From: Candidatus Saccharimonadota bacterium
GTDB lineage: Archaea; Nanobdellota; Nanobdellia; Pacearchaeales; GW2011-AR1
DNA length: 32,000 nt
Direction: 5' to 3'
Assembly: GCA_017609205.1 (NCBI GenBank)
Contig: JAFCEL010000001.1
Span: 1 to 32,000 of the forward strand
How positions within the stretch are numbered: the first letter of the stretch is position 1; each line of letters begins with the position of its first letter. The notes beneath the pieces were generated by a model that saw nothing but the letters and a program-made list of their open reading frames with translations, made no database searches and had not been told where the DNA came from. The translations under genes and the position numbers were made by a program. This document shows, piece by piece, positions 25,201-29,027 of this stretch.

Positions 25201-25534
25201 TAAGGTTGCGTTGCTTACAAGACAGCCTACAGAAGGACGTGCAAGAGGAGGGGCATTGAGACTTGGTGAGATGGAACAACAGGCGTTGGTTGCTCATGGT
25301 GCTTCATTGTTGCTTAAAGAGAGATATGATTCAGATAAAGTTATAATTCCTATATGTTCAAAATGCGGGACAATTGGAATTGATGATACAATTAGAAATA
25401 GGGTCTTCTGTCCTATGTGTAACAGCGACGAGGTTGAGTATATAGAGATATCATATGCATTTAAATTATTGCTTGAAGAACTTCAAGGACTTCATATCTA
25501 TGCAAGTTTTGGATTAAAGAATAAATATGAATAA
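22283..25534 (+). CDS. rpoB: DNA-directed RNA polymerase subunit B (unsplit Rpo2)
   Basis: 1083 aa. GYFIIKGNERV, THYGRFCPVETPEG, GYNMEDA, GDKFATSHGQKGV, LGEMEQQAL, and a C-terminal Zn ribbon CSKCG...CPMC. Confidence 0.95.
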   Translation: MIQKSKHPIVKSFLRNHSLVESNIISFNNFIKFRMQEIVEEIAETINNEDFEITLGKIRVGRPNIIEADGSSSRIMPYEARLRNLTYSAPITLEITIRKDDLVDSGEVEIGRIPIMVKSEVCNTHGLSKEELIKNYNDPNDPGGYFIIKGNERVMVMAEDLAENQPFIETNNKGELTLRLFSLRGTYRIPITISENKDGILEVTFSRFKNIPAVVLLKALGMTKESDIAKNIGQDNDNVIVNLYEFVDIVSKEDAMLYIAEKTNLQGTKKEILDRTKQRINSYLFPHIGQKKEDLEKKAETLCKFIKQYLIAKKNPSLRTDKDHYANKRVRLSGDLLTTLFRVNLGILIRDIQYSLQKASKRKKFFSIKVIAKSTLFSHRVESSIATGSWTGERSGVTQNMQKTNYLDTISQLQRVASMLQSDQENFLARTLHPTHYGRFCPVETPEGTEIGLRKNLAILSKISTRVDLDRDKFIKELEKEGMKQEGEFDVFFNGLFIGCVDNASEFVRILREKRRNSSLPEQMSFREDYDFKNVLISTEPGRVLRPVIIVDDGKPRLTKEHLLQIEENKIVWEDLIKQGIVEYIDAAEEENALVALFEEELTPEHTHLEIDPTDLFGVVTSIVPYANHDQSARLMRGSKTFKQALGIYAANYLCRLDTDVSILQYPQKPIVRSFVYDTLKTYPAGQNLVVAVMPYEGYNMEDALVFNKGSLDRGVGRSFYFRPYSAVEMNYAGGLKDEIVIPEKDVSGYKSEKDYGFLETDGVVSVEANIDEGNVLIGKVSPPKFLSEAREIAVRTKKESSITMRQEEKGIVDAVFITEDSEGNKVVHVKTRDQRIPELGDKFATSHGQKGVIGMIVPEEDIPFTSEGIRPDVIFNPHGIPSRMTVGYLLELLAGKVGCLKGEVIDGTPFSGTSKKELEEQLRELGFRYDGKETMYHPVTGKKMKSKIFVGNLYYLKLKYMVGNKIHGRASGKVALLTRQPTEGRARGGALRLGEMEQQALVAHGASLLLKERYDSDKVIIPICSKCGTIGIDDTIRNRVFCPMCNSDEVEYIEISYAFKLLLEELQGLHIYASFGLKNKYE

Positions 25535-28500: not shown

Positions 28501-29027
28501 TTGTTAAGAAAGATAGAGATTATATTGTTATGACTCTTGGAACAAATCTAAAAGAGGTTATGAAGATGAAAGAAGTTAATAAGGATAAAATTCTCTCTAA
28601 TGATTTGTATGAATTTGCAGATGTCTTTGGAATTGAAGCTGCGAGACAATTAATAATAAATGAAGCAAAAAATGTTCTTGATAATCAGGGGCTTGATGTG
28701 GACGATAGGCATTTCAAGTTAATTGCCGACGCTATGACGACGACGGGTATAATTAAGGGAGTTACAAGAATGGGAATAATTGCACAAAAGTCCTCTATTC
28801 TTGCGAGAGCTACATTTGAAACTCCTGATAAGCAGTTTGTTAATGCGACAGTTAAAGGACAAAAAGAACAGTTATCAAGTGTAATAGAAAATATAATTCT
28901 TAATCAACCAGTTCCAATTGGAACAGGATTGCCTGGACTTCTTGTAAAAGTTGTGGGTCCTCTTACAAAAAAAGAGAGTGAAAAGAAACTTGCAAAGAAA
29001 GAGGTTGTAGAGAAAACGAATAAATAA
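25527..29027 (+). CDS. rpoA: DNA-directed RNA polymerase subunit A, single polypeptide covering both A' and A'' (Rpo1N+Rpo1C fused)
   Basis: One uninterrupted 1166-aa ORF. It contains the zinc ribbon CRTCGG...C, [10 protein letters not shown] (catalytic Asp triad, A' part), then ...[52 protein letters not shown] (trigger loop, normally near the N-terminus of a separate A''). No stop/start pair occurs near nt 27950-27990. Confidence 0.93.
   Translation: [1166 protein letters not shown]

Follow-up and report, generated by a model that had tools for sequence, protein, structure and literature searches.

A one-frame RNA polymerase largest-subunit gene with a shortened junction in a Pacearchaeales-type archaeon

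The fused rpoA gene and its junction

The 32,000-nucleotide stretch analysed here (positions 1 to 32,000 of contig JAFCEL010000001.1, assembly GCA_017609205.1, hereafter the window) comes from an archaeon placed by GTDB in the order Pacearchaeales and carries, on its + strand, an rpoA gene (25527..29027) in which both parts of the archaeal RNA polymerase (RNAP) largest subunit Rpo1, A' and A'', lie in a single open reading frame (ORF) of 1166 codons, encoding 1166 aa with no internal stops. The NCBIfam A' model TIGR02390 matches residues 10-815 over model positions 1-856 of 867, and the A'' model TIGR02389 matches residues 810-1135 over model positions 31-361 of 367, bearing out a first-pass annotation of the DNA that had proposed one unsplit gene at this place. 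By alignment the A'-homologous part runs from 25527 to 27968 (residues 1-814) and the A''-homologous part from 27981 to 29027 (residues 819-1166 plus the stop), leaving a junction proper of four residues (H815-G818, 27969..27980) between the end of the A' alignment and the beginning of the A'' alignment. The DNA at the join (nt 27963-27983) was read from 27900 to 28040 and shows no stop, ATG, frameshift or long homopolymer, nor any plausible ribosome-binding start; the first-pass annotation had claimed the lack of a stop, a Shine-Dalgarno site and a new ATG for about 27950-27990. Two ATGs three codons apart are candidate starts of the gene, that at 25527 overlapping the end of rpoB and that at 25536 giving 1163 aa; a public gene call, cluster P0003, has 1163 aa and is 100% identical to the window protein.

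The five Rpb1 Pfam domains are present in canonical order (PF04997, PF00623, PF04983, PF05000 and PF04998, E 1e-20 to 1e-78). The metal-A catalytic motif (26838..26867, residues 438-447 of the translation) is the consensus NADFDGDEMN with Y replacing F, and in a 36-sequence alignment its N438, A439, D440, D442, G443, D444, E445, M446 and N447, three aspartates among them, are invariant, as are the clamp zinc ligands C65, C68, C75 and H78, and C105, C108, C136 and C139. The bridge helix (27792..27878, residues 756-784, aligned to the Rpb1 bridge-helix region) and the trigger loop region (28017..28112, residues 831-862 ending GLPR, with the motif at 831-841) fall in stretches that align to Rpb1 804-878 and 1057-1129, and the translation places catalytic motif and trigger loop in the same ORF, another point on which the first reading was correct. 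Judged from the sequence, all catalytic elements, that is the metal-A motif, clamp zinc ligands, bridge helix and trigger loop alike, are intact and conserved, and the gene would be the organism's working Rpo1, presumably translated as one chain.

Within the bridge helix a proline, P768 (nt 27828-27830, in ALRTPKSGY), matches the nanoarchaeal-type substitution described for Nanoarchaeum equitans and for Pace- and Woesearchaeota sequences (PMC8204694). Nottebaum & Weinzierl predicted that this proline destabilises the bridge helix, and the related N. equitans enzyme, which has similar substitutions, is active in vitro (PMC8204694). The trigger loop of the window protein likewise deviates from the usual sequence.

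Between the motifs YG(D/E)DG and PGEA(I/V)G the window protein has 13 residues and 13 fused relatives have 13-16, against 44-79 in split relatives (mean 73 in the sister split clade), 85-86 in the unsplit proteins of Bathy-, Thaum- and Korarchaeota and 96 in Methanosphaera; with 14 junction residues, fused forms have ~59 fewer than the sister split clade. In its first five residues (xDV[ST]K) the fused junction aligns with the beginning of the A' tail, and in its last three (KIx) with the end of the A'' head, so that one in-frame deletion would be the simplest history. The first-pass annotation had put the protein at about 100 aa shorter than the usual sum of A' and A'', which is roughly right: fused forms average 1169 aa and A'+A'' 1244 aa in the sister split clade, a difference made up of 59 aa at the junction and ~22 aa elsewhere in the A' part.

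Alignment to split A'/A'' chains and to Rpb1, which the same annotation had suggested, defines what is missing. Residues 740-814 align with yeast Rpb1 804-878 and with the Rpo1N chains of Sulfolobus shibatae (2WAQ) and Thermococcus kodakarensis (4QIW), and residues 819-891 with Rpb1 1057-1129 and with Rpo1C from residue ~53-56. The split Rpo1N/Rpo1C pairs of these two structures (chains A and C) have the same domains, catalytic motif, bridge helix and trigger loop as the window protein and the same place in the operon; they differ in that the window has no stop or start at the junction (27900-28040), and in that its protein has no counterpart of ~24-26 residues at the C-terminus of Rpo1N and ~52-55 at the N-terminus of Rpo1C (Sulfolobus, Thermococcus). 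Where yeast Rpb1 has 178 residues (879-1056), the window protein has only 4. The yeast segment is reportedly the foot domain of the Pol II domain map (Cramer et al. 2001). With eukaryotic Rpb1, Rpc1 and Rpa1 the window protein would share the single chain, and such subunits are the best structural matches of its AlphaFold2 (AF2) model, built from the 36-sequence alignment with a mean predicted local distance difference test (pLDDT) score of 74; the best Foldseek hits are single-chain Rpb1/Rpc1 (E ~1e-82, TM 0.37). Identity is ~29%, and the window protein has no C-terminal domain (CTD).

One gene might nonetheless yield two proteins, by precursor cleavage or by internal initiation of A'', to give a two-chain enzyme. 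The junction is a surface-exposed connector and the sequence alone is compatible with such processing, but the junction offers no ATG, GTG or TTG with a plausible ribosome-binding site and no intein or protease motif, and the short connector keeps a conserved length of 13-14 aa and has a pLDDT of 75-84 in the model. Eukaryotic and thaumarchaeal Rpo1 homologues, moreover, function as single chains. We regard a two-chain product as highly improbable.

Relatives and phylogenetic position

A protein search with the junction region of rpoA (residues 700-1000) matched over 100 clusters of public proteins, which are 69-80% identical to it and with few exceptions 1145-1166 aa long; those with a name are called Candidatus Pacearchaeota archaeon or Nanoarchaeota archaeon. 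Among the nearest relatives, 28 of 31 genomes have a match, all spanning the junction in one open frame, as do all matches in a further set from the same order (19 of 19 genomes). An order-wide sample, covering nine families of this GTDB order, gave a match in 295 of 301 genomes with a stop-free span across the junction in every match among the matches listed, and single rpoA ORFs of 1133-1203 aa were extracted from 18 genomes that cover all nine families. The other orders of the class show the split state: ~128 of 130 sampled genomes have two separate matches, with A' of ~840-900 aa and A'' of ~365-430 aa, and in the 33 split loci that were read A' ends in a real stop and the ATG of A'' follows a few bases on or overlaps it.

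That the window gene is a sequencing or assembly artefact, a missed base hiding a stop or frameshift between separate genes, has only the general error rate of metagenome-assembled genomes (MAGs) in its favour. The same architecture recurs in ~295 independently assembled genomes of the order and in the >100 public protein clusters, there is no homopolymer run at the junction, and a single-base error cannot remove ~59 residues; the probability of an artefact is accordingly extremely small.

Outside the order, seven genomes (G049, G118, G160, G175, G177, G099 and G122) gave apparent open frames of 1188-1387 aa, which were rejected as fusions because A' and A'' are separated by an in-frame TAA, TAG or TGA, or because the genes contain apparent inteins. 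The open-frame length reported by the search can exceed the true ORF where only an in-frame stop separates the genes, and is insufficient alone for calling a fusion. At one of these loci (L016, G049:C28, strand -) the pair is split but trimmed: A' has 837 aa and ends ...YGEDGTDPAKLILKE, followed by TGA, two codons and the ATG of an A'' of 348-350 aa that begins MEKAKPAKKKELEKLDPVKVTPGEAVG in the same frame as A', so that one stop-codon change would fuse the two. We rejected this pair as an evolutionary intermediate; its trimming is independent, since the trees place G049 away from the fused order, within another split clade, and G065, the one other genome of its order, has a normal split. Insertions that look like inteins measure ~490 aa within A', around the catalytic motif, in one family, and ~500 aa within A'' just ahead of the trigger loop. 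Intein-like or large insertions occur at L011 and L012 (G099, G122), L012 and L025 (G122, G157), and L124, L127, L128 and L132, with A' reaching 1456 aa in the Aenigmatarchaeota-labelled L124 and A'' 857 aa in the Aenigmatarchaeota-labelled L127. The junction regions of Thermoplasmata are 179-222 aa long.

Two trees were built from A' and A'' together, the two halves of split genes being joined end to end, after exclusion of the junction columns. In the first (66 rows, LG+C20 with posterior mean site frequencies, PMSF) the class and the fused sequences each form a clade with support of 100, the sister of the fused clade is a clade of 14 split sequences (96), and three further split clades, N. 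equitans included, lie outside this pair. The second (63 rows, LG+G4) drew on 80 named loci from GTDB species genomes and added split sequences from Euryarchaeota (Methanosphaera, Methanobacteriaceae, Thermoplasmata, Hydrothermarchaeota) and from TACK (Culexmicrobium, Methanomethylicales), together with unsplit ones from Bathyarchaeota, Nitrososphaeria, Korarchaeota and Asgard archaea. Here the split Euryarchaeota are basal to the DPANN clade (99), the class again has support of 100, and so has the fused clade, which includes the Pacearchaeota MAGs L073 (CG06) and L115 (RIFOXYC1); its sister is a split clade (99) whose named rows are labelled Woesearchaeota or Methanosarcinales. In both trees several branches with support of 95 or more separate the window clade from the TACK and Asgard A-type sequences. 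In both trees the fused sequences are monophyletic and sit within a set of split lineages, which argues for a secondary re-fusion. Class members have an A' tail of 21-27 aa and an A'' head of 40-54 aa, and their split site coincides in the alignment with that of Methanosphaera, Hydrothermarchaeota and Culexmicrobium; the split would therefore have been inherited and the fusion derived.

Some labels conflict with these trees. Many MAGs named 'Candidatus Woesearchaeota' at NCBI bear the compact fused gene, and two of them that were placed (L065, L089) fall within the Pacearchaeota clade, while two 'uncultured Methanosarcinales' MAGs (L068, L082) have a gene pair of the Woesearchaeota split type. 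In the first tree P0308 (1208 aa, fused) and P0316 (841 aa, A' only) are very closely related, with branch lengths of 0.12-0.13, but have opposite states.

Unsplit A-type genes are found elsewhere in Archaea, and the first-pass annotation overstated the matter in calling the split near-universal: they were tabulated in 2011 for Thaumarchaeota, Korarchaeota and Caldiarchaeum (PMC3082918 Table 1), are also published for Aigarchaeota and Bathyarchaeota (PMC3082918 Table 1; PMC5484517), and were seen by us in named sequences of Bathyarchaeota, Nitrososphaeria, Korarchaeota, Helarchaeota and Baldrarchaeia. The lineage of the window could on that account have branched before A' and A'' were split and merely have lost some junction residues, and a test with a reduced row set, in which the fused clade is sister to all split members of the class, keeps this arrangement at p = 0.09. 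Against it, the fused clade sits within a class whose other four clades are split, and that class lies inside a DPANN plus Euryarchaeota group whose basal members share that split site; the gene would have had to split at one and the same position at least four times independently, and the larger row set gives p = 0.027. The ancestrally unsplit proteins of Thaum-, Kor-, Aig- and Bathyarchaeota are, like the window protein, one polypeptide, but they measure ~1265-1300 aa, keep a junction region of 85-86 residues homologous to the A' tail and A'' head where the window has 13, and group with TACK and Asgard sequences far from the window clade. Of the two histories that the first-pass annotation had offered, secondary re-fusion is supported by the trees and the junction deletion; retention of an unsplit gene found no support and is, in our judgement, very unlikely.

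Several points weigh against a secondary re-fusion or limit its support. Both trees are quick searches whose support values are Shimodaira-Hasegawa approximate likelihood-ratio test (SH-aLRT) values only, and DPANN sequences are prone to long-branch artefacts. When all split members of the class were constrained to one clade that excludes the fused clade, the approximately unbiased (AU) test under LG+G4 gave a cost of 51 log-likelihood units for the larger row set, a modest rejection at the p value just cited, and the smaller row set did not reject the constraint; AU support for the nested position is moderate, not overwhelming. The order-wide search listed roughly half of its matches, and in four genomes of that sample it gave two matches each. 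The global predicted template modelling (pTM) score of the AF2 model, 0.43, is as expected for a single chain of a large complex and is uninformative on how the two halves pack.

We nevertheless consider it very likely that the window contains the normal, functional Rpo1 gene of a Pacearchaeales-type DPANN archaeon, secondarily re-fused. The ancestor of the class would have had the usual archaeal adjacent or overlapping pair of rpoA' and rpoA''. In the stem lineage of the order an in-frame deletion would then have removed, probably at once, three things: the 3' end of A' (its last ~16-22 codons), the overlap of stop and start, and ~50 codons from the 5' end of A''. The product would be one polypeptide of ~130 kDa in which the bridge helix, formerly of A', and the trigger loop, formerly of A'', are linked by a connector of 13-14 residues, as compared with ~70-95 residues in split archaea and far more in eukaryotic Rpb1, and the enzyme would otherwise work as any archaeal or eukaryotic-type RNAP. 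Possible benefits are a fixed 1:1 stoichiometry of the two halves, their assembly in cis and a saving of ~180 nt.

This type of gene is already known. Da Cunha et al. (2017, PLoS Genet, text and S29 Fig; PMC5484517) described 'a secondary fusion in Pacearchaeota', and the rpoA fusion of Pacearchaeota appears again in Nottebaum & Weinzierl (2021; PMC8204694). The window gene is the same thing, without essential differences: it is one ORF, has the short junction and falls in the fused clade. The first-pass annotation had thought that a survey might lower the novelty of the gene by finding fused forms to be commonplace in the clade, and this is what it did; the fusion has been in print since 2017, is common to the whole order and is a lineage marker. 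To the Pacearchaeota record we add a count across the order, the extent of the junction deletion with its endpoints, and a test of whether the fused clade is nested.

The RNA polymerase operon

The + strand of the window holds a canonical archaeal RNA polymerase and ribosomal-protein operon. It opens with rpoH (Rpo5, 22077..22283, 68 aa; NCBIfam NF007129 subunit H, E 3e-16), followed by rpoB (Rpo2, 22283..25534, 1083 aa), which has seven Rpb2 Pfam domains, matches NF006335 subunit B over residues 4-1081 and holds the B'' and B' models in one frame, so that it is unsplit, as the first-pass annotation had also remarked. Downstream of rpoA lie, again on the + strand, a nusA-like KH protein of 138 aa (29075..29491; Pfam KH_1/KH_2, and TIGR01952 nusA_arch at E 1e-14), ribosomal proteins S12 (29529..29951; PF00164, E 4e-35) and S7 (30305..30916; PF00177, E 1e-36), and the N-terminal part of elongation factor 2 (31019..31999; PF00009, E 1e-53), which continues past the window. 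An ORF of 123 codons with a TTG start (29932-30303, +) overlaps the end of the S12 gene and occupies the 353 nt that separate S12 from S7; neither Pfam nor NCBIfam gave a match to it. Upstream of rpoH a 146-aa ORF (21348-21788, +) has an N-terminal signal-like hydrophobic stretch and a C-terminus ...VPLVPEFGFFICGLTILGVIGIFFLVRRQ, which we take to resemble an archaeal sorting signal of the PEF-CTERM type; Pfam and NCBIfam scans gave no significant family match.

In split relatives an L30e gene stands 3' of rpoA''. It is missing from the window, where rpoA is followed directly by the nusA-like gene (29028-29074), and PF01248 (L7Ae/L30e) has zero matches across the whole source assembly, which is 88% complete in 2 contigs. 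Four of six genomes of the same family have a single PF01248 hit, genomes of split orders usually two, the weaker adjoining rpoA'', and one genome (G062) retains a 22.5-bit PF01248 remnant beside rpoA. The fused-rpoA order may have lost L30e or kept it in degenerate form; that the source assembly lacks L7Ae probably reflects an assembly gap.

Fused genes elsewhere in DPANN and their significance

Single-ORF rpoA genes of 1128-1185 aa also occur outside the class (L056, L076, L096, L103, P0133, P0136, P0305, P0310, P0311 and P0415), in MAGs labelled Aenigmatarchaeota, Altiarchaeota or Micrarchaeota and in one unlabelled archaeon. An Aenigmatarchaeota-labelled group (L056, P0136, P0305, P0310) has junctions of 21-22 aa, and P0415, with the same label, is fused and keeps 74 junction residues; a Micrarchaeota-labelled clade (L103, L096, P0133) has junctions of 6-10 aa and an Altiarchaeota-labelled pair (L076, P0311) of 20-23 aa. 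The junction sequences of these fused forms are unrelated to each other and to that of Pacearchaeota, each of the three labelled groups has split sister sequences in the tree, and at least eight changes between the fused and split states are needed on the second tree. Among Micrarchaeota the split forms, too, have short junctions (34-36 aa). The pattern suggests that reduced DPANN genomes have trimmed and re-fused the gene repeatedly. We lean, by a little, towards the view that the rejoining of rpoA' and rpoA'', together with a trimmed junction (a foot remnant), is recurrent and convergent in small-genome DPANN and not confined to Pacearchaeota, and put it no higher because NCBI labels of MAGs are partly unreliable and the trees are quick searches. 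The literature searched contains no report of a compact re-fused rpoA beyond Pacearchaeota, and the compact forms in Aenigmatarchaeota-, Micrarchaeota- and Altiarchaeota-labelled MAGs are possibly unreported.

For the order itself, the fused rpoA is a reliable synapomorphy of the Pacearchaeales type that can serve in binning and taxonomy. It is also a reminder of the name that annotation pipelines give the fused gene, 'subunit A''. In debates on the root of Archaea, whether rpoA is split or fused has served as a rare-genomic-change character (PMC5484517); if the state flips repeatedly inside DPANN, as the survey here suggests, it is more homoplastic than assumed and its weight should be set to match. 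Since the junction module is almost wholly removed, an archaeal RNAP would be able to work without this surface element, a loss that may be of interest to structural biologists working on minimal enzymes.

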